Virus record (IMG/VR): IMGVR_UViG_3300045988_182965
Strand: one strand, 5' to 3'
DNA: 64,000 nucleotides
Source of the DNA: a virus
In this document: positions 5,028 to 52,244 of the stretch, one piece after another
How the letters are laid out: every line of letters begins with the position of its first letter
Position numbering within the stretch: the stretch's first letter is position 1
Translations under genes and position numbers: made by a program
Notes under the pieces: generated by a model
Database searches by the model: none
What the model saw: the letters and a program-made list of their open reading frames with translations, nothing else
What the model was told of the DNA's origin: nothing

Positions 5028-5262
5028 CAAATATAGAAAAGAAAGAAATTGTACATACCTCTGACTACAAATTATCCAAATGCAATCCAATCAAAATTCT
5101 TGAATTCGGGAACAGCTGTTCTTCCAGCACTTTCTGGAGTGACGACATAACCAGTTCCAAGACATTTTCAAAGTACAAACAAATCCAAAGTCAAAACCAA
5201 AAAAGCAATCAAAGCACAAAGCACAATGTAGTTAGAGGCCATCTGAATCGGAAGCTTGTCCT

Positions 5263-8400: not shown

Positions 8401-9007
8401 ATGGGTAAAGTTTCCTTGCTCACACGGAAACAATGCGCAGGCAAGGACTTTCTGACGGCTGTGAGGAGGTAAGGCAGCTAATCTAAAGCCTTGCTATACA
8501 ATACTCTGATGAACTCTCTACTAAGCCCAAATGTGGGCTCAGTGGTTTTTGCGATATCATGGGCATCTGCAAAGATTCCATACTTGTCTTTCGGTGTTGG
8601 CTCTTTCCTATCAGAACAGACAGCCCGACTGGAACGAATCCAAGGCCGAGTATTCAGCTTTCGGCAGAGGACGACCGCCCTATATGATAGGTTCAGAACG
8701 TCTGCAGGGCCTTGTGACAACTGCCAGCTTGTCTTTTTGGCTGCCCGGTTGTCTCAGCAAGCTCTCCTGTAACCAAAACCAGAGACTTGGCTATTCGGCT
8801 TTGATAAAAGCAGTTCACAAAGCGGACTTCCCATTGTATAATAGTGACATACATTTGAATTTCGCAGGACTGATATCAGGTGGAGCAGATGGGCAAGAAT
8901 CGGATGAGCCGCAGGGAAGCGTGAGCAAGGAAAATCACAAAGACCACAAATATAATCTTGGTAGAACGGGAAAATACCGATATCATTCAAGGAGGGAGGA
9001 ATGTGAT

Positions 9008-10405
9008 ATGGAACGAATGATTGACGCAGAGACGGAGGAGCTCTCAAAGCGGGAAAAGTACCGTGAACGGCGCGGTGAGGAGTATGATGTTGTCTCAAAA
9101 GTCGCTTTCCTTATTGGCGTGCCAGACTCTCACTGGAAGAGCCAGTATACGGGTTTGGATTCAGATATTTATGAGCAACTCAGCGATAACCGAGACGCTC
9201 GCATCATTCGTAATCTCTGTGGCCTGCGGACCGAGATAGAGCGGAACTTCAAGCGCTTTTCAATGCTTATTCTGATGGAGTTAAAGAACCTGCATACGAT
9301 TCCTCAGACACAAGGCATGGCTAGTCAGCTTCGAAAAGATGGAATCGATATCATAAAAGCGAATCCAAAGCTGGAAGAATACCTGCCCAAAATCAATGCT
9401 CTCTTGCAGCAGCACATCGATGCGTGTAAATCTCTGTTTCCAATCTGGGTCAATTGGGAGTTTGTGCGACAGCTATTTATCATCCCTGGCGGCAATAGCA
9501 CAAAGAAATCCAAGGAAGTGTTCGAGTACTATATAGAAAATCTCGAACGCTATCCGTATCGCATGTTCATTAACTGGCGGTGGAGCAAAGACGAAGAGGG
9601 AAATCTTCTCTATAATGACGAAAAGTTCCTGAGCCGACTCTATCAGCAGAATGGTGAGGTGTTCACCGGCTATTCCAATGTCAGAGGAGAAGGAAGAGAA
9701 ACCAAGAGAAACATTTATGGATTTGTGGATGCCAGCGAACAGACGGTTGCTCTCGTTGATTGCGAGAACTGTGACCCGCTGAAACTGTGCGCGGCTTTAC
9801 AAAGTATGCAACCGGAGACACTCGCCAAAATCACGAAAATCATCCTATACAATGATGTGAATGCTTCTTCTGCCTGGAATCTGCTTCAGAAACATACAAA
9901 GGCAGCCATTGAACATCAAATGTCAGAACGAGTCCTTACCGGGAAAAGCCTTGTGGATGTGATGCTGGTGGCGGGATGCTGCAAGGAGCACTATGTCAAC
10001 AAGGTGGACAGTTTCCTGCTGTTTTCATCGGATTCCGACTATTGGGGCCTTATCAGTTCCGTGTCCACCGCCAAATTTCTCGTGATGGTTGAGCAAAACA
10101 AAGTCAGCGGCGAAATCGTACAGAAAATGATTGACAGCGATATTCCATTTTGCTACCTGGACCAGTTTTGCCAAGGCGGACAATCACATAAAATGAAGGT
10201 CGATGCACTGCTCAGTGAATGCCAGCGCTTTGTCAGCAGGCACTTTGAAAGCTTTAACGTCAAGGAAATGATGAATGTAGCTCATCTACAGACCCGCATC
10301 GAGCTTTCGAAAGTTGAAGAAAAACAATTTTTTGAAAGATACATTAAAACCATGCGCATCAAAATCTCAGCGGATGGTTCCGTAAACATTGAGTTCGGAA
10401 GCTGA
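9008..10405 (+). CDS. NYN/LabA-like (PIN-fold) domain protein
   Basis: RBS GGAGGGAGG. ALVDCENCD and FLLFSSDSDYWGLI resemble the two conserved NYN motifs. The annotated long ORF from 8531 has non-protein-like composition upstream of 9008. Confidence 0.45.
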   Translation: MERMIDAETEELSKREKYRERRGEEYDVVSKVAFLIGVPDSHWKSQYTGLDSDIYEQLSDNRDARIIRNLCGLRTEIERNFKRFSMLILMELKNLHTIPQTQGMASQLRKDGIDIIKANPKLEEYLPKINALLQQHIDACKSLFPIWVNWEFVRQLFIIPGGNSTKKSKEVFEYYIENLERYPYRMFINWRWSKDEEGNLLYNDEKFLSRLYQQNGEVFTGYSNVRGEGRETKRNIYGFVDASEQTVALVDCENCDPLKLCAALQSMQPETLAKITKIILYNDVNASSAWNLLQKHTKAAIEHQMSERVLTGKSLVDVMLVAGCCKEHYVNKVDSFLLFSSDSDYWGLISSVSTAKFLVMVEQNKVSGEIVQKMIDSDIPFCYLDQFCQGGQSHKMKVDALLSECQRFVSRHFESFNVKEMMNVAHLQTRIELSKVEEKQFFERYIKTMRIKISADGSVNIEFGS

Positions 10406-10615: not shown

Positions 10616-11761
10616 ATGGGAACATACATCACACACGAGGGCCTGCCATTCCACGGAACCCTCAAAAAAATCAGAATCAGGTCCTGTCGAGCAACAGACC
10701 CGTCTTTGCCAGGTTTTGACGAAGAGCAGCTCTTGGAAACCACGCCGGATGGAACAGTGAAGCTCACACAAAAGACGCCAGAGGAAACAGAAAAGGCAAG
10801 AGCCAATATCCCGCAAGCCGATGCCGACTACATCTTTGCTGCATTCTCCGAAGTGTTCGCAAGCTATCAAAGGGAACGCATTCCTTCCATTAGCGGCCAT
10901 TGGCGAGTTCGACTTCTAACGAATGACAATGAAGTATACTTCTACCATGGTGCAAACGGACAGGACTACCGCTACCATGACGAGTCTCTCACCGATATCC
11001 TTCGGCAAAGAACCGGAATGCCAGAACTATTTGGCCTCAATGTTAAGACGGAAACAAAGAGCAAAGTGAAATCTATCGAAATCAGCCTGGAACAAACGGC
11101 AGCGGATAAGGTTAAGGACAGATACGCCAACGAATGCGGAATTTGTATACATGATACAAATGAGTGGCTGCTCGTTAGTTCAGAGGGCACGATAACTTAT
11201 AATCGCCGTATTGCACATGTGGGAAGAGCCTCCTTGCAGTACGAACTCAAAGACAAGGTGGCAGAGTTCCTCAAGGTATATGATGACCAGAGCGTGTTTT
11301 CCCACCCAAAAGGACACTCACCAGATACTGTACAGGATGAGGTTCGAAAGACCTATAGAATAGTCGTGACTCGTGACAGTGGAGATACTTCCGTTCTGGA
11401 AGGCTCATTCGATAAGGACGGCCTGCCCGATAACTGGCCGGACTTTGTTGGCAGGCTGACAGACTTCTTCCAGGACCAGAGCCTCGGAATGCTGTTTGAC
11501 TCTCGCGTGTATAGCAAAGTATTGAGAAAGAGCAATGAAGTGGCTTTTTGTGGTGTCGATATCGATGGCGTGGTGAGAACACGCTATTACCGCTGTGGGG
11601 ACGAAATCTGCGAGGGAGATACGGTCGTGGTCCCGACACCGATGAAGCACACATTGGCTATAGGACGTGTTGTCGAAATTCGGCATTACCCAAAAGACCA
11701 GATTCCGAAAGACATGGCGCAGGCACAAGAGATTCTGGGCCTTGCCAAAGAAACAGAATAG
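10616..11761 (+). CDS. hypothetical protein
   Basis: 381-aa ORF with good composition, ending at a terminator. Confidence 0.45.
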   Translation: MGTYITHEGLPFHGTLKKIRIRSCRATDPSLPGFDEEQLLETTPDGTVKLTQKTPEETEKARANIPQADADYIFAAFSEVFASYQRERIPSISGHWRVRLLTNDNEVYFYHGANGQDYRYHDESLTDILRQRTGMPELFGLNVKTETKSKVKSIEISLEQTAADKVKDRYANECGICIHDTNEWLLVSSEGTITYNRRIAHVGRASLQYELKDKVAEFLKVYDDQSVFSHPKGHSPDTVQDEVRKTYRIVVTRDSGDTSVLEGSFDKDGLPDNWPDFVGRLTDFFQDQSLGMLFDSRVYSKVLRKSNEVAFCGVDIDGVVRTRYYRCGDEICEGDTVVVPTPMKHTLAIGRVVEIRHYPKDQIPKDMAQAQEILGLAKETE

Positions 11762-11769
11762 GGAAAAGA

Positions 11770-11808
11770 AAAAAGAGGGGCTTAGAGCAGCTCCTCTTTT
11801 TTTTATTG
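11770..11808. terminator. Bidirectional terminator (A-run, hairpin, T-run)
   Basis: AAAAAGAGGGGCTTAGAGCAGCTCCTCTTTTTTTT between convergent genes. Confidence 0.5.
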
Positions 11809-11810
11809 CC

Positions 11811-12200
11811 TTATTCTTCCAAAACCTCTCCGAGCGAAAGGACCGCATTGCGGACACATTCAGGGCAGGGACACAGAACTTTGCCGGTTCCAATGCCTTT
11901 CAGGTCCTTGCAAATAGTCGCGCCGCATTTGCCCTCAAAACTCTGTACGAGTTCCTTAGAAACACGGGGCGTGCCTTTGCCATCTGTGAGAATGCCTGCC
12001 ACCATGACAGCGCCAATCAGGGCCCCGCAAGTGCTTTCCATACACCCCATCCCGGCAGCGTATCCCGCCGTCAGCTTCATCAGCGTTTCATCATCGATAG
12101 ATAGTTTATCCTCAAACACCTTGACCACAGACTGTGTGCAGTTGCATTTCCCGGTCGCCTTCAGTTCAGCAGCCACCGCTGCGCGTTCCTCAATACTCAT
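11811..12200 (-). CDS. C_GCAxxG_C_C family protein (putative redox-active)
   Basis: CGALIGA, GKCGATIC and CPCPEC motifs diagnostic of the C_GCAxxG_C_C family. Confidence 0.7.
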   Translation of the reverse strand: MSIEERAAVAAELKATGKCNCTQSVVKVFEDKLSIDDETLMKLTAGYAAGMGCMESTCGALIGAVMVAGILTDGKGTPRVSKELVQSFEGKCGATICKDLKGIGTGKVLCPCPECVRNAVLSLGEVLEE

Positions 12201-12261
12201 ATTTTACACTCCTTTTTCTTTCCAGTATACCACAAAAAGACGGGCACAGGCAAAAAAAGAA

Positions 12262-12300
12262 AGGAGCCACCCGAAGGTGACTCCAATAGTTTAGGTTCCT
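12262..12300 (-). terminator. Terminator for the minus-strand lipoprotein gene
   Basis: ggagccacc cgaa ggtgactcc hairpin followed by a T-run on the minus strand. Confidence 0.55.
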
Positions 12301-13684: not shown

Positions 13685-14953
13685 ATGGCGAGCAAACGAG
13701 CGATACTTCACTGTGACATGAACTCTTTTTACGCAAGCTGCGAGGCGGCTTATAACCCAAAGCTGCAGGGAAAGCCGATTGCGGTATGTGGTGACCCGGA
13801 AAGGCGAAATGGCATCGTGTTGACCGCCTCGTATCCAGCCAAACGGATGGGAGTCAAAACCGGGATGGCTCTGTGGGAAGCACAGCAGCATTGCCGAGAT
13901 ATCATCTTTGTTCCGGCTCATTATGATTTATATACACGATACAGCGGATACACCAGAGAGATATTCCTCAGATATTCCGACATGGTCGAGCCGTTTGGCT
14001 TAGATGAAGCATGGCTTGATTGTACCGCAAGCCAGTCTCTTTTTGGAACGGGGGAAAAAATTGCAAAGCGTATCTCCGACACTGTGAAGGATGAACTCGG
14101 CATCACCTGTTCTATCGGCGTGAGTTGGAACAAGGTTTTTGCAAAGCTCGGGTCCGACTATAAGAAGCCGGATGCCATCACCATCATATCAAGGTCAAAC
14201 TGGAAAGATATCGTATTCCCGCTGCCTGCCACGGACCTCTTGTATGTCGGGCCCAGAACGGGGAAAAAGCTGTCAAACTACTGTATCCATACAATCGGGG
14301 ATTTGGCGACCGCCAATCCAAGCTTTCTGAAAGAGAAACTCGGAAAAATCGGTCCCATGCTATGGGGATTCGCCAACGGGCTTGATACGGGAACGGTAGC
14401 AAAATACGAGGACAGGGAAGCTCAAGCACCTATCAAGAGCATTGGCAACAGCTGGACAACGCCACGGGACTTGAAGACTGACCAGGATGTCTTGATTGTC
14501 CTCTATCTGCTTTCGGAGAGTGTTGCGGCAAGACTCAGGGAGAATCATTTCCGTTGCAGAGGTGTGGAGGTAAGTTTGAGAGATTCCAGCCTTTTCAGCT
14601 TTGAGCGGCAAGTCAAGCTGCCTCAGCCAACAATGCAGGAAAAGGATATTGCGAAGGCAGCTTACCAGCTGTACAAGAAGAACTACCGATGGAGTGAGCA
14701 TCTTCGCTCAGTTGGCGTGCGTGCCATTGACCTGCGGCCGGATACCGAGCCAAATCAGATATCTTTTGAGTATAGTGCCGAAAAGCAAGAGGAGACTGAA
14801 CGACTCGAATCCGCAATCGACGGGATACGGAATCGGTTCGGATACTACTCCGTGCAGCGAGCCGTCATGTACAAAGACCGGTTTCTCTCGCATTGCGATG
14901 CAAAGGGAGACCACACCATACATCCACACGGATATTTGCAGGGGAGTATCTAA
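13685..14953 (+). CDS. Y-family DNA polymerase (UmuC/DinB/ImpB-like)
   Basis: N-terminal ILHCDMNSFYASCE and CGD motifs and overall Y-family layout. Confidence 0.8.
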   Translation: MASKRAILHCDMNSFYASCEAAYNPKLQGKPIAVCGDPERRNGIVLTASYPAKRMGVKTGMALWEAQQHCRDIIFVPAHYDLYTRYSGYTREIFLRYSDMVEPFGLDEAWLDCTASQSLFGTGEKIAKRISDTVKDELGITCSIGVSWNKVFAKLGSDYKKPDAITIISRSNWKDIVFPLPATDLLYVGPRTGKKLSNYCIHTIGDLATANPSFLKEKLGKIGPMLWGFANGLDTGTVAKYEDREAQAPIKSIGNSWTTPRDLKTDQDVLIVLYLLSESVAARLRENHFRCRGVEVSLRDSSLFSFERQVKLPQPTMQEKDIAKAAYQLYKKNYRWSEHLRSVGVRAIDLRPDTEPNQISFEYSAEKQEETERLESAIDGIRNRFGYYSVQRAVMYKDRFLSHCDAKGDHTIHPHGYLQGSI

Positions 14954-14956
14954 TTC

Positions 14957-15229
14957 ATGCCAGAACAAAGAACCAAGAAATATGTCGAGGTCATTGCCGA
15001 TTTCTCTCCTGAAGGCATATTGACACCTCAGACAGTCATCTGGGACACAGGTCAGAGATTCGACATCACCTGCATCTCAGAAGTATTGCCGCGTAAATAC
15101 TCAAAGACCGGCGGCGTTGGGGTGCGCTATACCTGCCAAATAGGAAGAGCCAAAACATATCTGTTCTTTGAGGAAGACAAGTGGTTTGTTGAGGCAAAAG
15201 AAAACGCTGCAACAGCAGACTCTTGTTAA
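14957..15229 (+). CDS. Small protein coupled to the Y-family polymerase, possibly an accessory subunit
   Basis: 90-aa ORF starting 3 nt after the polymerase stop. Confidence 0.4.
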   Translation: MPEQRTKKYVEVIADFSPEGILTPQTVIWDTGQRFDITCISEVLPRKYSKTGGVGVRYTCQIGRAKTYLFFEEDKWFVEAKENAATADSC

Positions 15230-15615
15230 AAGTCAAAGAAATAATTGCCCGTCAAGACTCCATCGACTTTCATAGTAGTGTTTGGGTCAGGCTTGCAACC
15301 GGATTTGCGGCAGAATGACTCCATTTCATGCGTTAACACGGACTGAATGATAATGCGGTGTACACCGTATTCTTCGCAAATTTTCTTCAAAGCCGAAAGT
15401 ATCGCTGTCATCGTACCACAACGCTTATGCGCGAACTCAACACGAGAAAGAACCAGTGCAAAATGGCCAAGAAAAGCAACACGTAACTCGTTCTTTCCAT
15501 CGTTTGAGGTAATCCAAACAGTACGCATGCTGGTAGAAACACTGCAATGACAGTTTTGCTTATTTTCAATAATATCAACAAGTTGTTGTATTTGTTCTTT
15601 TGTAAGCTCGAGCAT
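15226..15615 (-). CDS. hypothetical protein
   Basis: 129-aa ORF with a GGAGGG RBS on the minus strand. Confidence 0.4.
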   Translation of the reverse strand: MLELTKEQIQQLVDIIENKQNCHCSVSTSMRTVWITSNDGKNELRVAFLGHFALVLSRVEFAHKRCGTMTAILSALKKICEEYGVHRIIIQSVLTHEMESFCRKSGCKPDPNTTMKVDGVLTGNYFFDF

Positions 15616-15715
15616 ACCGATAACCCTCCGATATTTTTATAGCTTAAACATTATAACACAATATTAAGCAGACGAAACGACTCTAAAACAATTCACAGAA
15701 AGAAGGTGAAGCATA

Positions 15716-16270
15716 GTGAATAGCAAGTATCGAGAGCAAACCTGCTGCTTTGTCGGGCACAAGGATATCCCACCGGGAGAACAGCTCAAAATATTAGCCA
15801 GGGTAGAGCATCGGCTCGTTCCACTCATTCAGCAGGGGGTCACCTATTTTGGCATCGGCGGTTCCTTAGGCTTCGATACTCTCATGGCGGATATGCTGGT
15901 TTCCCTGAAAGCAGCACATCCCCGTATTCGTATCATTGAGGTTTTGCCTTTTGAGGGATATCGCGCTAAGTGGAAATTAGAACAGCAGCGACATGCCGAG
16001 AAAATAGACAAGCAGGTGGATAAAATAGTATATGCTGCAAAAGAACCAGGCAGGGGAGTATACCTCCAAAGAGACCGACATTTAGTCGATTGCTCGACTT
16101 ATTGCATCTCCTATTGCACAAGAACCACCGGAGGCACAGCGTATACGGTAAAATACGCTCTGGAACATGGCGTAACGATGTATAACGCTTCCAGTTTCGA
16201 TGTGAGCGCCCTGCTTCAGGCTCAGCCGCTTGGGAAGAACGAACAGGTAGTGTCTTCGCACAAAATATGA
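15716..16270 (+). CDS. SLOG-fold protein (DUF1273/YpsA-like)
   Basis: CFVGHKD...GVTYFGIGGSLGFD...HLVDCS pattern resembling DUF1273. GTG start with an AGAAGGTGA RBS. Confidence 0.45.
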   Translation: MNSKYREQTCCFVGHKDIPPGEQLKILARVEHRLVPLIQQGVTYFGIGGSLGFDTLMADMLVSLKAAHPRIRIIEVLPFEGYRAKWKLEQQRHAEKIDKQVDKIVYAAKEPGRGVYLQRDRHLVDCSTYCISYCTRTTGGTAYTVKYALEHGVTMYNASSFDVSALLQAQPLGKNEQVVSSHKI

Positions 16271-16496
16271 GGGAAATTTTCGGGCGTTTGGAAAAACACC
16301 CCTAGGACTTTGAGCTTTGCTGCACAAAAACAAGCCTCCGCTCTTTGGCGGGGGCTCTTCTTGTATTCTCAAAAACGTTGAATTCAATTTCACTGAATTC
16401 CGATTCAACATTATTTGGCGTGGCTCAGCTTGGCCCGGCAGCACGATGCCATGGCGGTAGAACACAATGATTCTCCAGAACGGGATTCTCGACATC

Positions 16497-16516
16497 CAGT
16501 GCGAATCGCATATAAT
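16497..16516 (+). promoter_or_regulatory. Element promoter motif CAGTGCGAATCGCATATAAT
   Basis: Matches the GTGCGAAT-N-TAYAAT consensus, 40 nt upstream of the CDS at 16555. Confidence 0.5.
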
Positions 16517-16554
16517 CTAAATAGTTAACACCAAAAAGAGGGGAGAGAAAAGCC

Positions 16555-17280
16555 ATGAAGGTCTTGGTCATTCCAGACTGCCACCTGAAACCCTGGATGT
16601 TTGCGCAGGCATATGCCATCATGAAGAAGGGCATTGCAGACAAGGTCGTCTGCCTTATGGACCTGGCGGATGATTTCGGGGTTCATGACGATGCACAGTA
16701 TCTGGAGACCTATGAAGCCGCAATCACGTTTGCCAGGGAATATCCCGAAACTCTCTGGTGCTACGGAAACCATGACCTGAGCTACATCTGGGGAAAACCG
16801 GAAACCGGATACCATCCGGAAAAAAGAGGGCTGGTGTGTCAAGAAATTAAAAAGTTGACAAATACCTTGCCAAAGAAAAGTCAGCTTGCATATATCCACA
16901 AAATTGACAAAACACTTTTCATGCACGGCGGCCTTGCAAATCTCTTTGTTCAGCTCCGGGTAGCACCACAGAACCGAAAAAATGTTCTCGAGGTTATCAA
17001 AGCTATCAACCAGATGGGCTGTGAGACAATGTGGGCAGCGGACTCTCCCATTTGGTATCGCCCGCAGCTGTCTCCGAATCAGAACGCAAAACGTTTGTAT
17101 CGCGGCGGCAAATATCTGCAAGTGGTGGGGCATACGCCTGTGAAAGAAGTTTACCTGGAAGGTGGAGTGCTTTCCTGTGATACTTTTTCAACCTATCGTG
17201 ACGGAACCCCATACGGGTCACAGGCTTTTTGTATCGTGGATACCATTACTTTGGAGTTTGAGACAGTTAAAGGCGGATGA
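16555..17280 (+). CDS. Calcineurin-like metallophosphoesterase
   Basis: VIPDCH, LMDLADD and GNHD motifs. Confidence 0.65.
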   Translation: MKVLVIPDCHLKPWMFAQAYAIMKKGIADKVVCLMDLADDFGVHDDAQYLETYEAAITFAREYPETLWCYGNHDLSYIWGKPETGYHPEKRGLVCQEIKKLTNTLPKKSQLAYIHKIDKTLFMHGGLANLFVQLRVAPQNRKNVLEVIKAINQMGCETMWAADSPIWYRPQLSPNQNAKRLYRGGKYLQVVGHTPVKEVYLEGGVLSCDTFSTYRDGTPYGSQAFCIVDTITLEFETVKGG

Positions 17281-17495
17281 GTGCCGATAAAACAAGCGTT
17301 GAGAGAAACGGTGCTATATGCTATAATATTTTCAAGTTCAAGAACCACAGCCGATACAATCTCAACGAAGAGCTTGATGCCTGCTTGAAACTGCACAGCA
17401 ATAAAAAGCAAATATCAAATAACAGAAATGCAGCTTAAAGAGAAAGGCTGCCATATAAAATAGCAAGAAACGTTTGCAAAAATAACAATCAGCGC

Positions 17496-17536
17496 GAAAG
17501 GGACGTCCCTTTCCTTACGGAGAAGAACTCCGTAAG
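17496..17536 (+). promoter_or_regulatory. Two tandem perfect hairpins overlapping the RBS of the next gene
   Basis: gaaagggacgtccctttc palindrome, then ccttacggag aaga ctccgtaagg. Confidence 0.45.
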
Positions 17537-17537
17537 G

Positions 17538-18533
17538 ATGGGTTTTGGCTGCTTCCTGCGCTGCGCGGGGGTGGCACATCTGGGCAAACTAATTGACCTG
17601 TATTCTTATCCGGTCAGAACGGCAATGCGGTTTCTGCTGGCAGATAAGACGACAGGTGAAAATATAATCTGGGCAACGAATACTTATGAACGATATGGCG
17701 ATGGTTATCGGCAGGATAATCAAATCACGCCGGAGCTGATTTCCGGGGTATATGCCAATCTTATCCAGCCGCGTATTTTGAAAGCGGAAGAGGAACAGGC
17801 GGCAAGAACTAAATCCAAAGCCGAGGTCTTTACGCCCTCTTGGGTCGTCTGCTATATGAACAATAAATGCGATGACGATTGGTTTGGACGAGAAAACGTA
17901 TTTAATACGTTGAACGGTGAACATTGGGGGCCAACGAAAGAGCCTATCAGTTTTGAAAAAGAATTGGACTGGCAGAGATATGTTGATTCTCGGCGGCTGG
18001 AAATCACCTGCGGCGAGGCCCCTTATCTAGTATCTCGCTATGATGCCGCTACTGGAGAAGAACTTCCGATTGAAAACAGAATAGGGATTCTGGACAGAAA
18101 GCTGCGGGTCGTGAACGAGAACACCGATAATGAGGCTGACTGGCTGAAATGGACGCGGCGGGCATTTGAAAGCACCTATGGGTACGAATATCAGGGTGAC
18201 AACCTGCTGGTTGCCCGCATCAACCTATTGATGACCTTTGTGGACTATATGCAGGAGCGATGGCGGCGGGAGCCGACTGCCAAAGAACTGAACCAGATTG
18301 CCAATGTAATCTGCTGGAATATCTGGCAGATGGATGGCCTAAAAGGGACGATTCCGGGCAAAGAACTGTACATATCAGACGACTACGAGCAGCTATCCCT
18401 GTTTGCAAGTGACTCTGAGCAGGAAACGCTGTTCGACGAGACGGCTAAGCAGAATAAAAAGTACGAATGTAAAATCCGTGATTGGCGTGCAATGCGGACA
18501 ATTACATATAGCAAAATGAAAGGAGAAAAATAG
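17538..18533 (+). CDS. Hypothetical protein upstream of the MTase catalytic gene (contains an EVFTP motif)
   Basis: 331-aa ORF. AEVFTPSWVV resembles MTase motif X, but no motif I follows. Confidence 0.4.
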   Translation: MGFGCFLRCAGVAHLGKLIDLYSYPVRTAMRFLLADKTTGENIIWATNTYERYGDGYRQDNQITPELISGVYANLIQPRILKAEEEQAARTKSKAEVFTPSWVVCYMNNKCDDDWFGRENVFNTLNGEHWGPTKEPISFEKELDWQRYVDSRRLEITCGEAPYLVSRYDAATGEELPIENRIGILDRKLRVVNENTDNEADWLKWTRRAFESTYGYEYQGDNLLVARINLLMTFVDYMQERWRREPTAKELNQIANVICWNIWQMDGLKGTIPGKELYISDDYEQLSLFASDSEQETLFDETAKQNKKYECKIRDWRAMRTITYSKMKGEK

Positions 18534-18537
18534 TGCC

Positions 18538-19575
18538 ATGAAGTTCGATTATGTAACCGGAAATCCGCCGTTCAATACAGAATCGGTTGGCGCAAATGAA
18601 AATGATACGCCATTGTATCATTATTTTTATGACGCAGCGTTTCAAATATCAGATAAAGTGGAACTTATAACACCGGGTCGCTTTCTGTTTAATGCAGGCG
18701 GTACACCGAAAGAGTGGAATGAAAAAATGCTAAATGATGTCCACTTTTCGGTTTTATATTATGAGGGCGATGCATCAAAAGTTTTTGCAGGAAAATCAAT
18801 AAACGGTGGCATTGCTATCGGGTACAGAGATACAACTAAAGTTTTTGAACCTATTGGTATTTTTACCGCGTTCCCTGAGCTCAATAATATACTGCTAAAG
18901 ATAAATCATAAATCAAGTGGTAGCTTCGCAGATATTGTTACTAATAGAGGATTGTATAAGTATTCGAACTTGGCCTATGAAGAACATCCGGAAGAAATGA
19001 AGATGACTGCTGACAAACGTATTGCTCCAAGTGCTTTCGAACGTATGCCTAATATGTTTACAGAAGAAAAACCAATTGATGGAAAAGAGTACATTCACAT
19101 ATTCGGAAATTTGAATAAGCAACGCGTATATCGGTGGCTACGCAAAGATTATATATGTCCAGTTAGTAACCTTGATAAATACAAGGTTTTTATATCAAAG
19201 GCAGATGGTGCGGCGGGTCAAATCGGAAAGCCCATTCCTGCACGAATTATTGGCAAACCAATTGTTATGGGTCCCGGCATTGGGTGTACAGAAACGTACA
19301 TTACAATCGGTGAAGTTGATAGCGAGAGTGAAGCAAATAGTATTGCAAAATACATTATGACAAAATTTGCAAGAACTATGATTGGAGTTCTGAAAGTAAC
19401 TCAAAACTATGCAAAACCAACATGGGAAAAGGTTCCAATGCAAAATTTTACTTCAAACTCCGACATCAACTGGTCAGCCTCTATCTATGACATTGACCAG
19501 CAGCTCTACAAGAAGTACGGTCTTTCCCAGCAGGAAATCGATTTCATCGAATCTCATGTGAAGGAGATGGCATAA
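18538..19575 (+). CDS. N6-adenine DNA methyltransferase, catalytic and target-recognition portion. Lacks N-terminal motifs X and I.
   Basis: Begins MKFDYVTGNPPFN (motif IV NPPF), followed by an ITPGRFLF-type motif. Confidence 0.6.
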   Translation: MKFDYVTGNPPFNTESVGANENDTPLYHYFYDAAFQISDKVELITPGRFLFNAGGTPKEWNEKMLNDVHFSVLYYEGDASKVFAGKSINGGIAIGYRDTTKVFEPIGIFTAFPELNNILLKINHKSSGSFADIVTNRGLYKYSNLAYEEHPEEMKMTADKRIAPSAFERMPNMFTEEKPIDGKEYIHIFGNLNKQRVYRWLRKDYICPVSNLDKYKVFISKADGAAGQIGKPIPARIIGKPIVMGPGIGCTETYITIGEVDSESEANSIAKYIMTKFARTMIGVLKVTQNYAKPTWEKVPMQNFTSNSDINWSASIYDIDQQLYKKYGLSQQEIDFIESHVKEMA

Positions 19576-19576
19576 T

Positions 19577-22500
19577 ATGAGCGCCAAAATCGTCATCAAA
19601 ACAACGGGCCGCGTTGTTCCGATGATTTATGCCTATACCACTCCTGAGATTGCCCGCCACAACGGTTGGACGAAAATCGGCTACACCGAGCAGGACGTAG
19701 ACAAACGTCTGAGTCAGCAGACCCATACTGCCGATGTGGAATACAAAGAAGAATGGCGCGGCAACGCTACGTTCGAGGACGGCTCCGGCGATACTTTTAC
19801 CGATAAGGATTTTCACCGCTACCTGCGCAAGCTGAACATTGAGAACGACCCCAAGAACGAATGGTTCCATGTGACAGGGCCTGTCTCCCGCAACCACTTC
19901 TATGATTTCCGCAGCAATCGCGGCATCCTGCAAACTCTGACTGCTGCCACACCGTATAATCTACGTGAGGAACAGGAAGATGCCGTAGAGAAAACGCTGG
20001 ATTACAGCCGTCTGCACACCAAGGGAGAATACCTCTGGAACGCAAAACCGCGCTTCGGCAAGACACTGACGGCCTATGAACTCTGCAAGCAGATGAATGC
20101 GAACACGGTCCTTATCGTGACAAACCGCCCTGCGATTGCAAACTCGTGGTATTCCGATTATGAGAAATTTCTCGGTCCCGATTCCGGGTATCTGTTTGTG
20201 AGCGATACCAGCTCCCTGCAGGGTAAGCCTTTTGTTGTGAGCCGCAATCAGTATCTGGATATGCTGAACAACGGCGACTATAAATGCATCGAGTTCGTCA
20301 GCTTGCAGGACCTCAAAGGCTCCATTTACTTTGGCGGCGAATTTGAAAAGCTGAAAGAAGTCAATGACATCCATTGGGATGTTTTGATTATTGACGAAGC
20401 ACACGAGGGTGTAGATACCTACAAGACGGATGTGGCGTTCGACCACATTGAACGCAACTTTACGCTGCACCTGTCCGGCACGCCGTTCAAGGCTATTGCC
20501 AGCGAAAAATTCAAAGAGGATGCCATCTATAACTGGACCTATGCCGACGAGCAAAAGAAAAAACGCGATTGGCAGGGCGACCAGAGCGAACAGAACCCCT
20601 ATGCCAATCTGCCGCAACTCAATATGTTCACCTATCAGATGTCTGAGGTCGTTCGGGATGAACTGAAACAAGGCATCGAAATCAACGGTGAAACAGAAGA
20701 GTGGGCCTTTGACCTGAATGAATTTTTTGCGGTCAATCAGGCCGGAAACTTTGTGCATGACAGCGCGGTGGACAAGTTCCTTGATGCGCTGACTACACAG
20801 ACTAAGTTCCCGTTCTCTACGCCGGAACTGCGAGATGAATTAAAGCATACGCTTTGGCTGCTGAACCGTGTGGACAGCGCCAAGGCGCTGGCCCGCAAGC
20901 TGAACAACCATCCTGTTTTCAAGGATTACAAGGTTGTTGCGGCAGTGGGGGATGGCAGACTGAACGATGATGATTCTGCCAAAAAAGCGTTTGACAGCGT
21001 TACCGAGGCTATCGCCCAGAACGATAAAACAATTACGCTGTCTGTCGGACAGCTCACCACGGGCGTTACGATTCCAGAATGGACTGCCGTGCTGATGTTG
21101 AGCAGCATAAAGAGCGCATCCCTGTATATGCAGGCAGCGTTCCGTGCGCAGAACCCGTGTCTGTTCCGAGATAAGGGCAAGTTCTACCGCAAGGAGAACG
21201 CCTACATCTTTGATTTCGACCCGGCGCGAACCCTTATGATTTTTGAGGAGTTCGCCAACGACCTGTATGCCAGCACCTCCGATGGGCGCGGTGATACCGA
21301 AACCCGCAAAAAGCACATCAAGGAACTGTTGAACTTCTTCCCGGTCATCGGTGAGGATGAAGACGGCGAGATGGTGGAGCTGGATGCCGAAAAGGTGCTT
21401 TCCATTCCGCGAAAGATTCGCTCCACAGAAGTTGTGAATCGCGGATTTATGTCCAATTATCTGTTCCAGAACATTTCCAACATCTTCGGTGCTCCGCAAG
21501 CGGTTGTGGACATTATTACGAAGTTCACCCCTGCGGACGAACCAAAAAAGCAGGAAGTCAAGAAAGAGGATTTGGACCACGTCCATGTGGATGAAAACGG
21601 CGATGTCAAGGTAGACGAGGGCTATGTTATCGGTCTGGCTGATGACATTTTTGGCGATAAAATCTATGATACTGTCGGTGAACAGGTCACGCAGGCTATT
21701 GATAAAGTTGCCGTTGACAACCAGCCCAAGGATAAGGCGCTGGAAGCGTTGCAGGAGGCTTTCAAGGTGCAGGCCGTCAAACCTATTGTTGCTGCTGCCA
21801 CCTCTAATTATGGCTCAGAAATCAAGGCTTCGGATGCCAAGCGCGTAGAAAAGAAGCTGGGCGAGGATGCGGACCGTCTGGTTGCGCGGACTTACGGAGA
21901 TTACCGTATTGAAACCAACCAAATCGAAAAAGAGCGTCATGAGCAGTTGGCTTCTGCCGCGCCTCACGAGCAGGAAAAAATCAATCAGGAGTTTGACCAG
22001 AAAAAAGCCGAGGCCACTGAAAAGCTGAAAGCCGCTTTGAATGATACGGTTAACAGCTTCGTGGAAGATGCCGCCAAAGAAACTGTCCGCAGCTATGAGA
22101 CGCAAATTGAGGAACGCAAGAAGAACGATGTGGAAGATACCATCCGTGACCATCTGCGCGGTTTTGCCCGCACAATTCCATCGTTCCTGATGGCCTACGG
22201 TACAGAGGATACCACTCTTGCCAACTTCGACCAAATCGTTCCCGATGAAGTTTTTCAAGAAGTCACCAGCATCACGCTGGAGCAGTTCCGTTTCCTGCGC
22301 GATGGCGGAGATTACGAGGATACCGCCACAGGCGAGACAAAGCACTTTGACGGGAAGCTATTTGATGAAGTCGTATTCGATGATTCCATCAAAGAGTTCC
22401 TACGGCTGAAACGTGAGCTGGCAAACTATTTTGACCCAGCAAACGAGAAGGACATCTTCGACTACATCCCGCCACAGCGCACGAACCAAATCTTTACGCC

Positions 22501-22873
22501 GAAAGCAACTGTGGCGAAGATGGTATCGCTTTTGGAAGAAGAAAATCCCGGATGCTTTGATGACCCGGACAAGACCTTTATTGACCTGTACATGAAATCG
22601 GGCCTGTACATTACCGAAATCGTGAAGCGCCTGTACCAGAGCGAAGGCATGAAAACCGCGTTCCCGAACCCCAAGGAGCGGCTCGAACACATCTTTGAAA
22701 AGCAGGTCTACGGTCTGGCCCCATCCGAAATTATTTATCGCATTGCGACCAACTATATTCTTGGGTTCTCTGAGGAGCATAACGGAAAGCAGTATAACTT
22801 TCGTATGTGCGATACATTGCCTTATGCAAAGGATGGGACGTTGAGCGAAAAGCTGGATGAGTTATTTGGATAA
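19577..22873 (+). CDS. T5orf172 (GIY-YIG-related) domain plus SF2 DEAH helicase. Carries a C-terminal MTase AdoMet-binding segment (motifs X and I only).
   Basis: N-terminal WTKIGYTEQDVDKRLSQQ. Helicase motifs PRFGKT, IIDEAHEG, SGTP and QAAFRAQNP. C-terminal IFTPKATVAKMV and FIDLYMKSGLYI resemble MTase motifs X and I. Confidence 0.6.
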   Translation: MSAKIVIKTTGRVVPMIYAYTTPEIARHNGWTKIGYTEQDVDKRLSQQTHTADVEYKEEWRGNATFEDGSGDTFTDKDFHRYLRKLNIENDPKNEWFHVTGPVSRNHFYDFRSNRGILQTLTAATPYNLREEQEDAVEKTLDYSRLHTKGEYLWNAKPRFGKTLTAYELCKQMNANTVLIVTNRPAIANSWYSDYEKFLGPDSGYLFVSDTSSLQGKPFVVSRNQYLDMLNNGDYKCIEFVSLQDLKGSIYFGGEFEKLKEVNDIHWDVLIIDEAHEGVDTYKTDVAFDHIERNFTLHLSGTPFKAIASEKFKEDAIYNWTYADEQKKKRDWQGDQSEQNPYANLPQLNMFTYQMSEVVRDELKQGIEINGETEEWAFDLNEFFAVNQAGNFVHDSAVDKFLDALTTQTKFPFSTPELRDELKHTLWLLNRVDSAKALARKLNNHPVFKDYKVVAAVGDGRLNDDDSAKKAFDSVTEAIAQNDKTITLSVGQLTTGVTIPEWTAVLMLSSIKSASLYMQAAFRAQNPCLFRDKGKFYRKENAYIFDFDPARTLMIFEEFANDLYASTSDGRGDTETRKKHIKELLNFFPVIGEDEDGEMVELDAEKVLSIPRKIRSTEVVNRGFMSNYLFQNISNIFGAPQAVVDIITKFTPADEPKKQEVKKEDLDHVHVDENGDVKVDEGYVIGLADDIFGDKIYDTVGEQVTQAIDKVAVDNQPKDKALEALQEAFKVQAVKPIVAAATSNYGSEIKASDAKRVEKKLGEDADRLVARTYGDYRIETNQIEKERHEQLASAAPHEQEKINQEFDQKKAEATEKLKAALNDTVNSFVEDAAKETVRSYETQIEERKKNDVEDTIRDHLRGFARTIPSFLMAYGTEDTTLANFDQIVPDEVFQEVTSITLEQFRFLRDGGDYEDTATGETKHFDGKLFDEVVFDDSIKEFLRLKRELANYFDPANEKDIFDYIPPQRTNQIFTPKATVAKMVSLLEEENPGCFDDPDKTFIDLYMKSGLYITEIVKRLYQSEGMKTAFPNPKERLEHIFEKQVYGLAPSEIIYRIATNYILGFSEEHNGKQYNFRMCDTLPYAKDGTLSEKLDELFG

Positions 22874-22892
22874 AACAGTATAGGAATATAGC

Positions 22893-22935
22893 TAAGCCGC
22901 CAAGCGAGTGAAATCGTTTGGTGGCTTTTTTCTTT
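22893..22935 (+). terminator. Rho-independent terminator
   Basis: agccgccaa ... ttggtggct followed by TTTTTTCTTT. Confidence 0.55.
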
Positions 22936-22949
22936 GTGCTATTGGCAGA

Positions 22950-23012
22950 AAACTTGCTGCGGACTTGCTATGCACTTGTTGAGGATTTGTCGGAGACTTG
23001 TCAAGGACTTGC
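22950..23012. repeat. Array of 5-6 (G)ACTTG(C) direct repeats
   Basis: aaaacttgctgcggacttgctatgcacttgttgaggatttgtcggagacttgtcaaggacttgc. Confidence 0.55.
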
Positions 23013-23075
23013 TTTAATTTTCCACGGAAGGTGCCGTTCAAAAGCCGAACGCCTTGTCAAGCTCAAAACACAAAA

Positions 23076-23471
23076 ATAAAAGTTTAGTTCCGGAAAATGC
23101 GAATTAAAAGTTTCGTTTTGGAAAAACGCAAAGTAAGACGCAAGTTTAGAAAACAACTCAAAAGCAATAAAACAGCAACATATCGATACTTTCGACTCAT
23201 TGTTGCAACAAACTTGCGGCCTATTTGCGGCTAGAAAGGGAATATCGCTCCAAGGCGCGGAAAAATGTCACAAGCGAACTGCTGAAACGCCGGAATTTTG
23301 TCGCAGGCCGCTCTTCACAAAAGTGAAAGGTACTGCTTCGAATCTGTGATGAGACAACCGGAGCGAGTTAACAGCAGAAGTTCAGCTGTCTCAAATGTTG
23401 TCAAGCCCGAAACACGAAAATTAAAAGTTCAGTTTTGGAAAGCGCCGATTAAAGGTTTCGCTTTGGAAAAC
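23076..23471. repeat. Two imperfect ~55-bp direct repeats (AAAAGTTyAGTTyyGGAAAryGCsrATTAAArGTTTCGyTTTGGAAAA)
   Basis: Copies at 23076-23130 and 23417-23471. Confidence 0.55.
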
Positions 23472-23627
23472 CCAACAGGGAAGGGAAAAAACTAAAGTAT
23501 AAATGCACGGAATTACGCCTCCTGATTTGTGCAATCTAACAAAATAGGTTACATTCTCACGAAAACGAAAAATCCGAAGTGATTCTTGGTGTATAATAGT
23601 TCTATCGCAAAGAAAGAAGGAAATAAC

Positions 23628-24572
23628 ATGAAAAAGGTTATATCTTTAGCACTTTCGGCATTACTTGCACTCTCGCTGGCTGCCTGCGGTGGCTCGAATA
23701 CCTCTACTGCCGCTTCCAGTACGGCGAACAGCGAACCTTCAACCGAGGCAGTCCAAGCAGAGGCACCTGAATCCGAGCCGGAAGAGACGCCTGAAGCCAA
23801 ATCCGAATTTCAGGAACAAACCATTGTGGATAACGAGTATTGCACAGTCATCCTCAAAGATATTGATGAAGATGGATTGTGGGGCTACAGCTGGAAGATA
23901 TACTTGGAAAACAAAACGGCTGACAAAACTCTGATGTTTAGCATGAACAATACTTCGGTGAACGGTGTGATGGTTGACCCGCTTTGGGCCGCAACTGTAG
24001 CTCCTGGAAAGAAGTCCAATGAAACAATTTCCTGGATGAGCACCAGCCTTGAGAAAAACAATATCAAGGCCGATGACATCACGCAGGTTTCTTTCACTTT
24101 GAATGTCTATGACAAAGATGATTGGGCAGCAGATAAGTTTGTCGATGAAGAGTTCACCATTTACCCGAAAGGTGAGGAAAATGCCTCGACGGTTGAGCGT
24201 GAAGCACAGAGTACCGATATCGTTCTCTTCGACAATGATTCCTGCAGTATGACTGTGACGGGATTTGAGCATGATGATATTTTCGGATACACTGTCAAAG
24301 CTTATCTTGTCAACAAGACGGACAAAGACTTGATGTTCTCCTGTAACGATGCTTCCATAAACGGCTACATGGCGGACCCGCTCTGGGCAACGACTGTGGC
24401 GGCGGGGAAGACTAGTAACAGCGATATTTCGTGGTCGGACAGTACACTTGAGGAAAACGGCATTGACGAGTCCAGCATCGAAGAAATCGAATTGCCGATT
24501 ACGGTATATCCGAGCGAGGACTGGATGGCAGATAAGCTGGTTGATGAGACTTTTACCATTAACCCCCAGTGA
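23628..24572 (+). CDS. Lipoprotein, paralog family A member 1 (internally duplicated domain)
   Basis: Signal peptide with lipobox LAACGG. Two internal copies of a DPLWA(A/T)TVAxGK(K/T)SN module. Promoter TGGTGTATAAT. Confidence 0.65.
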   Translation: MKKVISLALSALLALSLAACGGSNTSTAASSTANSEPSTEAVQAEAPESEPEETPEAKSEFQEQTIVDNEYCTVILKDIDEDGLWGYSWKIYLENKTADKTLMFSMNNTSVNGVMVDPLWAATVAPGKKSNETISWMSTSLEKNNIKADDITQVSFTLNVYDKDDWAADKFVDEEFTIYPKGEENASTVEREAQSTDIVLFDNDSCSMTVTGFEHDDIFGYTVKAYLVNKTDKDLMFSCNDASINGYMADPLWATTVAAGKTSNSDISWSDSTLEENGIDESSIEEIELPITVYPSEDWMADKLVDETFTINPQ

Positions 24573-24589
24573 TAGAAGGGAAGTACATA

Positions 24590-25306
24590 ATGAAAAAGAT
24601 TCTTTCGTTGCTCCTTGCAGCAACACTCGCGTTTTCTCTTGCTGCGTGCTCTTCCGGGAATACTTCTTCGAGCAGTGCAGCTGCATCCGATTCCGCATCT
24701 TCTGAGGAGAGCACCAGCGATTCCTCTTTGGAAGTCGAGAAGAAGCTGTTGACTGTCGAAATCACGCTTCCCGCATCCATGTTCGAATCTGATTCAGAAG
24801 AGGCTGAATCCGGAGAAGAATCTGCATCCGATGAAGTGGAGATTCACGAGACTCCTGAAGAGTATTGCAATCGTGTTGTGAAAGAGGATGGCTATCTGAG
24901 CGCGGTTCCTAACACGGACGGCTCGGTCACGCTCACAATGACGAAAGCCAAACACAGTGAAATGATGGCCGAAATGAAGCAGTCTATCGATGACAACATT
25001 CAGAAGTCGATAGGCGATGATGGCTTCCAATCCATCAAGGAAGTCACCTACAATGACGATGTCACAGAATTCACGGTAAAGGTTGACCGTGAGGCGTTTG
25101 AGGGAAGTTGGGACGGCTTGTCTGCACTTACCTATGCTTTATGCGGCGCAGCATACCAGTATTATAGCGGAGTGTCTGACCCGCATGTTGTAGTCAACTT
25201 TATCGATGCCGATACTGGTGAAACCATCAGCAGCTCTACCTATCCCGATGACTACCAAGATTTGCTGGGGGACAGTTCGGAAGAAGAGGAAGCAAGCAGC
25301 AACTAA
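24590..25306 (+). CDS. Acidic lipoprotein, unrelated to family A
   Basis: Signal peptide with lipobox LAACSS. Ser/Glu-rich. Confidence 0.55.
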   Translation: MKKILSLLLAATLAFSLAACSSGNTSSSSAAASDSASSEESTSDSSLEVEKKLLTVEITLPASMFESDSEEAESGEESASDEVEIHETPEEYCNRVVKEDGYLSAVPNTDGSVTLTMTKAKHSEMMAEMKQSIDDNIQKSIGDDGFQSIKEVTYNDDVTEFTVKVDREAFEGSWDGLSALTYALCGAAYQYYSGVSDPHVVVNFIDADTGETISSSTYPDDYQDLLGDSSEEEEASSN

Positions 25307-25360
25307 TCCAGAATAGTGTTGCCTTAAAAAACAGCACCTGTTGTTAGGAGAGATAAAACA

Positions 25361-26440
25361 ATGAGAAAACTCGTTTCGATTGCAGTATCCGCTGCACTCA
25401 TGCTATCTTTGTCTGCCTGTGGCAAGGCAGACAGTTCTGCTGCAGCCTCAAGTGAATCCAAGTCAAGTGCTTCGTCAAATAGCACTTCCAATAGCACGCA
25501 AGATTACAGCCCTGACGGGATTAAAGTAGGAGAGACATATACTACAGAAGACGGCAAAACATATGAAAGGGTGTGGAACGGCACAGGCAGCGATTTACCT
25601 ACGCCGTCCCCCGAACCCAAAATTACATACGATAATGATTTCCAGGCACAAACACTTGTTGATAATGAAGAATGCACCATTATCTTGCAGAGCGTTGGTT
25701 ACGATGATGATTACGGCTATTATTGGAAGCTTTATTTCAAGAATAAGACATCAGATAAAAAACTCGGTTACTCGTTTGATGACTGCACATTGAATGGCGT
25801 GGGTGCGAGCCTTTGGCTTACGAGTGTTGAACCTGGTCAAGAGGAAACGGAGATTCACCATTGGGAAAGTTCCGGGCTTAAAATCTATAACATCAATCCG
25901 CAGGATATCGATACGGTAAGTTTTTATCTCGATGTCTATAACGAATTAGATTATGATGTTACCCCACGACATGACTTTGTTGATGACGATTTTGTAGTTT
26001 ATCCAAAAGGGGAAGAAAACGCGACCGAGCCAAAGCATGAAACCCAACCAACAGACCTCGTACTGGCCGATAATGACGCTTGCGCCCTGATGATTTGTGG
26101 ATTTGACCCCAACGGCCTACACGGTTATACGGCTAAGGCTTACATAGAAAACAAAACAGATAAAGAAATCATGTTTGCCTTCAGAAGCGGAGGCTCCATA
26201 AATGGCTTTGAGTGCTTTCCCGAAACAGATACAATGGGAATTGATGCGCACACTAATGCCTATGTAGACATCTACTATTACGATTATTTAGATACTTATG
26301 AGGCCAACGGTAAAGACCCCACCTCTATCACCGAAATGGTGATGCCAATCGTTATAAACAATTTCAATACTCGGGACATCTATGTAGATGAGACTTTCAC
26401 TATTAACCCTCAGACAAATTCCGTGACAACATCGGAATAA
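25361..26440 (+). CDS. Lipoprotein, paralog family A member 2
   Basis: Lipobox LSACGK. YPKGEENATEPKHETQPTDLVL shared with member 3. Confidence 0.65.
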   Translation: MRKLVSIAVSAALMLSLSACGKADSSAAASSESKSSASSNSTSNSTQDYSPDGIKVGETYTTEDGKTYERVWNGTGSDLPTPSPEPKITYDNDFQAQTLVDNEECTIILQSVGYDDDYGYYWKLYFKNKTSDKKLGYSFDDCTLNGVGASLWLTSVEPGQEETEIHHWESSGLKIYNINPQDIDTVSFYLDVYNELDYDVTPRHDFVDDDFVVYPKGEENATEPKHETQPTDLVLADNDACALMICGFDPNGLHGYTAKAYIENKTDKEIMFAFRSGGSINGFECFPETDTMGIDAHTNAYVDIYYYDYLDTYEANGKDPTSITEMVMPIVINNFNTRDIYVDETFTINPQTNSVTTSE

Positions 26441-32837: not shown

Positions 32838-33048
32838 AGACAACAAATAAAAAGAGGGTGACTCGAAAGAGCCATCCTTTTTTCTGTCGTGACGCAAACG
32901 AAAAGTTCATAGTTCATGGTAGCCATCCAATTTGGGTGACTGTCTTTTTTGCATGTTAAGGCTTTGTTGCTAAATTGTGCGAATTGAAGATAATTAGAAA
33001 CAAAAGATGCTTTGTATCAAATCGATTGAAACCGAAGAGGTGAAGTTA

Positions 33049-33852: not shown

Positions 33853-33853
33853 C

Positions 33854-52220: not shown

Positions 52221-52244
52221 ACGACAAAATGATAGGAGCTTATT

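Follow-up and report, generated by a model that had tools for sequence, protein, structure and literature searches.

Type ISP restriction-modification enzymes such as LlaGI and LlaBIII are single polypeptides in which an Mrr nuclease, a superfamily 2 (SF2) motor, a helical coupler, a gamma-class N6-adenine methyltransferase and a recognition domain follow one another. In Eco57I-family Type IIG systems, a second 'M' gene is found beside the large enzyme, Eco57I itself being devoid of an ATP-dependent motor. Type III systems keep the methyltransferase and recognition part (Mod) separate from a ResIII-family helicase-nuclease (Res), with tightly coupled genes and with a C-terminal PD-(D/E)xK domain as nuclease of Res. 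Three consecutive genes related to these systems were analysed in a 64,000-nucleotide stretch of DNA (IMG/VR virus record IMGVR_UViG_3300045988_182965, hereafter the window), where ORF1 (17538-18533), ORF2 (18538-19575, 345 residues) and ORF3 (19577-22873, 1098 residues) lie on the plus strand. The coordinates given for them in an initial annotation, made from the letters alone, were exact for all three. With a probability of about 0.55, the region 17538-22873 is read here as one operon coding for an ATP-dependent Type ISP-like restriction-modification system with a dismembered methyltransferase.

As in Type ISP enzymes, the SF2 motor of ORF3 is followed by a helical domain and by the N-terminal region of a gamma-methyltransferase. 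In contrast, the window distributes over three polypeptides what Type ISP holds in one (single chains were found in the relatives P0316, L011 and pRS5), the N-terminal nuclease is T5orf172/GIY-YIG-like instead of Mrr, the fold of the methyltransferase breaks off behind motif III, its catalytic and recognition half being encoded by a separate upstream gene, and an extra free-standing half of the type that binds S-adenosylmethionine (AdoMet), here ORF1, was present at every complete locus examined. With the Eco57I family the locus shares the Pfam Eco57I domain, a match to the PADLOC model PDLC03626 and the second 'M' gene, but this 'M' (ORF1) is only an AdoMet half without motif IV or recognition domain, and the large protein has an ATP-dependent motor. 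With Type III systems it shares the separation of the methyltransferase and recognition part from a ResIII-family helicase-nuclease as well as the tight coupling of the genes. However, the motifs come in the gamma order (X, I-III, then IV) and not in the beta order, the nuclease is an N-terminal T5orf172, the 'Mod' is itself split and the 'Res' carries a methyltransferase half.

The same inventory of domains, likewise in a mobile defence-island context, has been described for DnmA-YeeB-YeeC of B. subtilis and Vibrio crassostreae, where a gamma-class MmeI-like methyltransferase is complete on one chain and the SF2 helicase and T5orf172 are separate proteins (PMC9973331). The likeness is one of inventory, as in the window T5orf172 and the helicase are fused while the methyltransferase is split three ways. 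M.AquI and M.EcoHK31I are naturally split DNA methyltransferases of the C5-cytosine class, M.AquI being split at its variable region. M.SssI and M.MpeI, also C5-cytosine enzymes, have been split by engineering (PMC5944983). All four are active only once two polypeptides from adjacent genes have assembled, as is predicted for the window. Compared with M.AquI and M.EcoHK31I, the window would encode an N6-adenine enzyme whose Rossmann fold is interrupted between motifs III and IV and for which two alternative N-terminal partners exist. To our knowledge, it is very rare for a natural DNA methyltransferase to be broken within the Rossmann fold, and no such enzyme is known with two alternative cofactor-binding partners. 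In the literature, which was incompletely covered, no description of the split, of the duplicated AdoMet half or of the permuted architectures was found. PADLOC already holds MTase_II models for both halves (327 and 348 positions) and a Type IIG model of 1359 positions.

ORF1 matched the REBASE-derived PADLOC model MTase_II PDLC03390 (327 positions) from end to end (E 1.5e-110); no Pfam match to ORF1 was found. The EVFTP sequence, which the initial annotation had left as being of unclear relation, turned out to be part of a motif X (EVFTPSWVV, 17823-17849), and it is followed by motif I (LEITCGEAPYL, 17997-18029), motif II (YGYEYQGDN, 18177-18203) and motif III (NIWQMDGL, 18318-18341). The residues of these four motifs are invariant or nearly so among 54 homologues in which ORF1- and ORF2-like parts are fused. 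When ORF1 and ORF2 were joined and searched against 5.8 billion proteins, 6328 matches were obtained; 119 of the best 120 were single polypeptides of about 613-700 residues, with 95-98% query coverage and an identity of up to 69%. ORF1 is identified as the AdoMet-binding half of a gamma-class N6-adenine methyltransferase and as the probable partner of ORF2. Because homologues begin with MAHLGK, translation of ORF1 probably starts at GTG 17571 and not at ATG 17538. The latter codon, from which the longest version of ORF1 is read, sits within a hairpin (17512-17538).

ORF2 starts with MKFDYVTGNPPF, and its motif IV is contained in KFDYVTGNPPF (residues 2-12). The Pfam Eco57I profile (PF07669) matched ORF2 over positions 73-171 of 171 only (E 2.4e-13), from which it is concluded that the AdoMet-binding part is missing. 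This agrees with the initial annotation, where ORF2 was described as a half enzyme without AdoMet motifs, and ORF2 was not found to be a complete methyltransferase with divergent N-terminal motifs. Its content runs from strand 4 and the NPPF of motif IV (18541-18573) through strand 7 to the recognition domain and a conserved helical C-terminal tail that begins at 19396. Nowhere among the three proteins are motifs X, I, II and III found with motif IV in one polypeptide: one set sits in ORF1 and a second one in the ORF3 tail, and the single-chain order occurs only in fused relatives. With ORF2 as query, the best 120 matches (55-99% identical) were nearly all free-standing proteins of 334-350 residues, and free-standing catalytic halves of this length form more than 115 clusters. 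The DNA of locus L001 is 87-91% identical to that of the window apart from a single gap in homology at 18747-19393, corresponding to residues ~70-285 of ORF2, and identity amounts to 93% for ORF1, 48% for ORF2 and 97% for ORF3. The restriction of the gap to ORF2 fits a swapped recognition domain, and the variable segment is probably the target-recognition domain.

The position of the break was deduced from P0001, the closest fused homologue of ORF1 and ORF2. At the join P0001 reads GEK-AK-MKFDY, where the window has GEK, a stop codon, four nucleotides and MKFDY. In the AlphaFold2 model of P0001 (predicted local distance difference test, pLDDT, 83.3), strands 1-3 belong to the ORF1-like part and strands 4-7 to the ORF2-like part, with a disordered linker (residues 266-295) between them. 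According to this division, the Rossmann fold itself is interrupted in the window, at the loop that leads from motif III to strand 4 and motif IV. Foldseek aligned the model over its whole length (E 6.5e-9 to 1e-3) with CamA, BrxX/PglX, LlaBIII/LlaGI, M.BseCI, BpuSI, MmeI and DrdV, the E-values for CamA, BrxX, LlaBIII and M.BseCI being 1e-9 to 1e-5, and a complete class I methyltransferase fold with a recognition domain is predicted for this homologue. At the level of sequence, neither ORF1, nor the ORF3 tail, nor the profile of the fused family matched the solved Type ISP enzymes, and their searches against PDB sequences gave no match or chance-level ones only (E >= 0.035).

A single methyltransferase gene of about 650 residues broken by a frameshift and a stop, or an assembly error, could be suspected from the predominance of single polypeptides among the best joined-sequence matches and from the different frames of ORF1 and ORF2, four nucleotides apart. 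The junction itself (18519-18540) argues otherwise, as it differs from that of the fused locus L001 by several substitutions and an indel, and bears a Shine-Dalgarno-like AAAGGAG (18519-18525) before the TAG stop of ORF1 (18531-18533) and the ATG of ORF2 (18538-18540). The same split was found in 32 of the 42 classifiable loci from a set of 80 metagenome loci anchored on the ORF3 tail, whereas eight were fused and two were split with an inserted gene. It was also seen in all nearest relatives (L027-L030, with tails 97-98% identical), in the genome of the isolate Gemmiger formicilis DFI.6.10 (L004), in L017 (324, 339 and 1096 residues) and in a metagenome-assembled genome (MAG) of Methanomicrobium (307, 337 and 1146 residues, with 1-nucleotide gaps). 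Exact copies of ORF1, ORF2 and ORF3 were recovered from independent assemblies of JGI/IMG, Logan and ENA (4, 8 and 2 contigs, respectively). Both halves are of full length with conserved motifs, and free catalytic halves make up a large family. Decay or assembly error is thus highly improbable, and the ORF1/ORF2 split is considered genuine. The rearrangement or inversion envisaged in the initial annotation was discarded as a recent event, since the three-gene order is kept from Clostridia to the Methanomicrobium MAG with gaps of 1-14 nucleotides; an assembly problem was likewise excluded as its source.

At each split junction that was read, an AAGGAG-like ribosome-binding site lies within the last ORF1 codons and is followed by the stop, 1-14 nucleotides and an ATG, and depending on the locus the frame changes by +1 or by -1 from ORF1 to ORF2. 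The individual start signals and the use of both frames point to translational coupling, and programmed frameshifting over the stop was rejected. Phase variation was also dismissed, the junction having no repeat tract beyond A5. Some fused proteins have catalytic halves 70-73% identical to ORF2, next to free ones at 74%. On a neighbour-joining tree of 253 catalytic halves, at least 40 changes between the three states (free, fused to an ORF1-like part, fused to the helicase protein) were counted, a number which recombination of recognition domains may inflate. The family comprises hundreds of sequence clusters in Firmicutes, Bacteroidota, Actinomycetota, Spirochaetota, Chloroflexi and one archaeon, and the split arrangement is common in gut microbes.

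The N-terminal part of ORF3 contains T5orf172 (PF10544, residues 17-100, 25 bits for a cutoff of 20) followed by a ResIII helicase domain (residues 127-304, E 1e-14), which bears out the nuclease-helicase organization proposed initially. The motor displays Walker A (AKPRFGKT, 20042-20065), DEAH (DEAHEG, 20393-20410), motif III (LSGTP, 20471-20485) and motif VI (QAAFRAQN, 21131-21154), and the T5orf172 residues are found in IYAY, KIGYT and NEWF. Walker A, DEAH/DETH, LSGTP and the T5orf172 residues were kept in 13 diverse ORF3 homologues. Mean pairwise identity, calculated across split and ORF1-fused architectures, was 0.68 for the tail, 0.64-0.68 for the helicase core, 0.52 for T5orf172 and 0.36 for the middle region. 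The REBASE-derived Type IIG model PDLC03626 (1359 positions) matched parts of ORF3 and ORF2, and also the helicase-fused relatives. At E <= 0.01, the only PADLOC models that hit the three proteins were MTase_II, REase_MTase_IIG and a weak LeoB on ORF3 (E 4e-4). Membership in Hma, Gao_RL/MANTIS, BREX, DISARM and other PADLOC systems was rejected as none of their protein models matched.

The C-terminal part of ORF3 (residues 850-1098, 22124-22870) consists of a helical domain and a methyltransferase-like region. It shows motif X (QIFTPKATVAKMV, 22487-22525), a variant motif I (FIDLYMKSGLYI, 22577-22612) of the form D-x3-KSG, a II-like motif (22703-22729) and a III-like motif (22793-22819), and the protein terminates where strand 4 and motif IV would come next, as had been proposed from the letters. 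The AlphaFold2 model of this part (pLDDT 90.3; predicted template modelling score, pTM, 0.85) displays in succession the helical domain, helix X, strand 1, a helix, strand 2, a helix, strand 3 and two helices; its top 48 Foldseek matches were all DNA adenine methyltransferases or restriction-modification enzymes containing one. The last 157 residues retrieved 753 homologues from 1.84 billion representatives, 148 of them below 1e-30. When the tail (138 residues) was virtually fused to the first 142 residues of ORF2, the Pfam N6_Mtase profile was detected with 22.1 bits (cutoff 20.4) from motif X to motif IV, and it was absent from the five controls (two shuffles, the reversed tail, an unrelated ORF3 segment and a shuffled ORF1 tail). 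The tail is assigned, on the strength of its motifs and predicted fold, as a second AdoMet-binding-type half, paralogous to that of ORF1.

The initial annotation had read the ORF3 tail and ORF2 circularly as one methyltransferase. Natural fusions of this type were indeed found, and the circular reading reflects a real alternative architecture, although it overlooked ORF1 as main partner. Among 61 long tail-bearing representatives, 32 end at the tail as ORF3 does and 21 run straight into an ORF2-like half. In P0316 (1431 residues) the sequence reads ...KLKQIFG-TEN-MKFDVVVGNPPYQ, that is the ORF3 C-terminus, three residues and the ORF2 N-terminus, and in both P0316 and P0340 the Eco57I match covers the full profile (1-171). 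Remoter helicase-methyltransferase fusions of 1319-1383 residues (L010-L014) occur in genomes of Bacteroidota, Faecalibacterium and Lentisphaeria, and others are carried by plasmids such as Pediococcus pRS5. The variant motif I [DE]-x3-K-S-G-L-Y is common to ORF3 and the helicase-fused relatives; their comparison by hhalign was weak (probability 32%), the alignments being shallow.

With N1 for the ORF1-like half, C for the ORF2-like half and Hel-N' for the ORF3-like protein, four architectures were distinguished. Three separate genes (N1, C and Hel-N') are found in the window, in L004, L009, L017 and L019 and in most metagenome loci. N1-C fused beside Hel-N' occurs in L001, L005 and L007. N1 beside a Hel-N'-C fusion occurs in L010-L014, L021 and pRS5. 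In the fourth version, a gene is inserted between N1 and C, with Hel-N' following, as in L006 (GmrSD), L008 (Schlafen/AlbA_2 ATPase) and a B. longum plasmid (IS256). The N1 gene was found wherever the upstream region was present, even 5' of the complete helicase-methyltransferase fusions, so that in all versions two AdoMet-type halves accompany a single catalytic half. The presence of a separate N1 upstream of such fusions agrees with a narrow version of the first proposal, in which the ORF3 tail and ORF2 would form a functional two-piece Type ISP methyltransferase with ORF1 as accessory or regulator. This is unlikely in view of the thousands of ORF1-like/ORF2-like fusions, of the complete adenine methyltransferase fold modelled for a fused protein and of the canonical, nearly invariant motifs X and I-III of ORF1.

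The domains of the Type ISP-like system would come in the Type ISP order of nuclease, SF2 motor, helical coupler, gamma N6-adenine methyltransferase and recognition domain. ORF2 would provide strands 4-7, the NPPF catalytic loop and DNA recognition and, judging from the fold, would be unable to bind AdoMet alone, so that pairing with an AdoMet half would be needed for activity. By physical complementation in trans with motifs X and I-III, ORF1 would complete ORF2 to give the modification methyltransferase and would thus be the partner supporting methylation. ORF3 would gain sequence specificity by engaging the ORF2 recognition half, or the ORF1:ORF2 enzyme, through its tail, and would then translocate and cut unmodified DNA, the predicted restriction activity. 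As catalytic halves are naturally fused to N1 as well as to N', either partner could complete ORF2. Tentatively, a complementation switch can be imagined, in which ORF2 would alternate between ORF1 for plain modification and the ORF3 tail for Type ISP-like restriction. Competition of both partners for one shared half-domain would then determine how modification and restriction are balanced, and evolution would have tuned this balance by repeatedly fusing the catalytic half to one partner or the other, or leaving it free.

Several observations weigh against this Type ISP-like scheme. The fused-fold model was built on P0001 and not on the ORF1-ORF2 pair of the window. At a 1:1:1 ratio one AdoMet-type half always stays unpaired, whatever the architecture. 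Virtual fusions to ORF2 also raised the Eco57I score, but shuffled and unrelated controls rose about equally and this gain was dropped as evidence; the reach of the match to profile position 1, seen with the true tail and with no control, is suggestive at most. DnmA-YeeB-YeeC, with the same domain inventory, shows no anti-phage activity in B. subtilis (PMC9973331).

The remaining points concern the tail, and they favour the main rival, a Type III-like organization in which ORF1:ORF2 would be the sole, Mod-like methyltransferase and the tail a dead pseudo-half docking a Res-like motor-nuclease. Motif I of the tail is D-x3-K-S-G and not D/E-x-x-x-G-x-G, with a Lys at the usual position of the first Gly, and the acid of motif II is displaced; the tail may not bind AdoMet. 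In hhalign of the tail with ORF1, motif X was the only part aligned (probability 66%). In addition, fused ORF1-ORF2 proteins beside a separate ORF3 are very common. Such an organization is nevertheless rather unlikely, given that 21 of the 61 tails are fused to a catalytic half, with linkers down to three residues, and that these fusions show the canonical topology of strand 3, helix and strand 4. The N6_Mtase profile crosses the virtual tail/ORF2 junction. Across the tail family, KSG, the Asp of motif III and the Thr of FTP vary hardly or not at all, as expected of a working cofactor pocket.

Methylase-helicase fusions of conjugative elements consist of a complete methyltransferase and an SNF2-type helicase without nuclease, and they are usually considered as anti-restriction functions, the label given in the initial annotation. 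ORF3 does not match them, having half a methyltransferase, a nuclease domain and an SNF2-rel_dom score under the cutoff (14.4 versus 24.9 bits). The label was abandoned in view of the GIY-YIG-type nuclease domain and of the closest fold, which is that of a Type ISP restriction enzyme. A TraG-like coupling protein (20-1558) marks the window as a conjugative element, and in B. subtilis the analogous DnmA-YeeBC acts as an orphan methyltransferase (PMC9973331), both of which would suit an orphan helicase-methylase that pre-methylates transferred DNA and has no role in restriction. Such a function is very unlikely here, since the nuclease domain fused to the motor is conserved, the module also occurs in non-conjugative settings (small plasmids, chromosomes and the archaeal MAG), the proteins match a REBASE-derived Type IIG model with Type ISP as best fold match, and other defence genes are nested within the module.

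The Type ISP-like reading would make this locus a natural model for split-enzyme assembly and for the balancing of restriction and modification through a shared recognition subunit. Its natural break points and partner pairs could be of use for engineered split methyltransferases. Annotation is also concerned: pipelines call the halves 'Eco57I domain protein', 'hypothetical protein' or 'restriction endonuclease subunit M', the last being what NCBI uses for the N1 homologue of B. longum plasmid p1, and the ORF1/ORF2 split can be taken for a frameshifted pseudogene.

On the plus strand, the three genes are bracketed by a promoter-like site and a terminator-like hairpin. The promoter-like site (TTGAGA-17-TATAAT with TG, 17299-17327) lies about 210-240 nucleotides 5' of ORF1 and has 11 of 12 consensus matches, but it is a consensus match only, such sites being no commoner in the region than in shuffles. 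The hairpin (22894-22927, 14-base-pair stem) with its T-run (to 22937) is strongly terminator-like and starts 20 nucleotides past the ORF3 stop. Upstream in the window are genes for a Y-family polymerase, a SLOG protein and a phosphoesterase, and more nuclease and helicase genes are found downstream. Outside the operon, the window resembles conjugative-element cargo (20-1558, 8531-10405, 13685-17280, 31194-35548, 37512-39677, 43245-45440 and 58230-60974), which includes, next to the coupling protein, a NYN-domain protein, an ImpB/UmuC-type polymerase, a YpsA SLOG protein, a metallophosphoesterase, a flotillin and VWA pair, a PLD/NgoFVII-like nuclease protein, a second ResIII helicase and a UvrD-like AAA_19 protein. 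The ORFs at 23586-26440, past the terminator, gave no Pfam or PADLOC match, and megablast of 17000-23500 against plasmids and phages gave none either. A low-GC patch (0.38) lies at 52001-54000. In L001, an AAA_15/AAA_21 ATPase gene (11017-12282) without counterpart in the window lies 3' of the ORF3 homologue, and ORFs of similar size are present in L004 (12476-13744) and L007 (12379-13653).

The ORF1/ORF2 junction acts like a hotspot for insertions. The inserted genes sit precisely between those for the ORF1-like and ORF2-like proteins and code for a GmrSD Type IV restriction enzyme in L006 (7918-9906), where the downstream catalytic half is frameshifted, for a Schlafen AlbA_2/HATPase_c_4 protein in L008 (7809-9608) and for an IS256 transposase in L108 (1645-2829; B. 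longum plasmid p1, NZ_CP065398). In L003 (6994-7514), which has the same integrative and conjugative element context as the window, homology ends exactly at window 18531, where the ORF1 stop codon begins, and gives way to a repeat-rich stretch, a reverse-strand HTH_36 gene and the contig end 520 base pairs on. This break, which had suggested a recombination hotspot, may be another, genuine form of the junction or a chimera created by assembly.

Decayed or truncated relics of the system are apparently common in gut metagenomes. In L071 (~4560-5550), an ORF3 tail from about residue 773 with an internal stop was read, and the same breakpoint was noted in about a dozen loci, L068, L070, L072, L076-L078, L082 and L089 among them, L071 being the only one read. 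P0241 and P0252 are deletion chimeras in which an ORF1 fragment is joined to the ORF3 tail, and in L109 (E. faecalis V583 pTEF3) a remnant made of tail and catalytic half adjoins IS256. Other variants lack the catalytic half. A 435-residue N1-N' fusion without it was found in three independent samples (L022, L023 and L024) at the head of a different operon, which in L022 (1161-7808) goes on with unknown proteins of 437 and 403 residues, a 647-residue SNF2 helicase and a GmrSD-like gene. In P0265 (1381 residues), a different domain of ~280 residues (~1098-1381) follows the tail and replaces the catalytic half.

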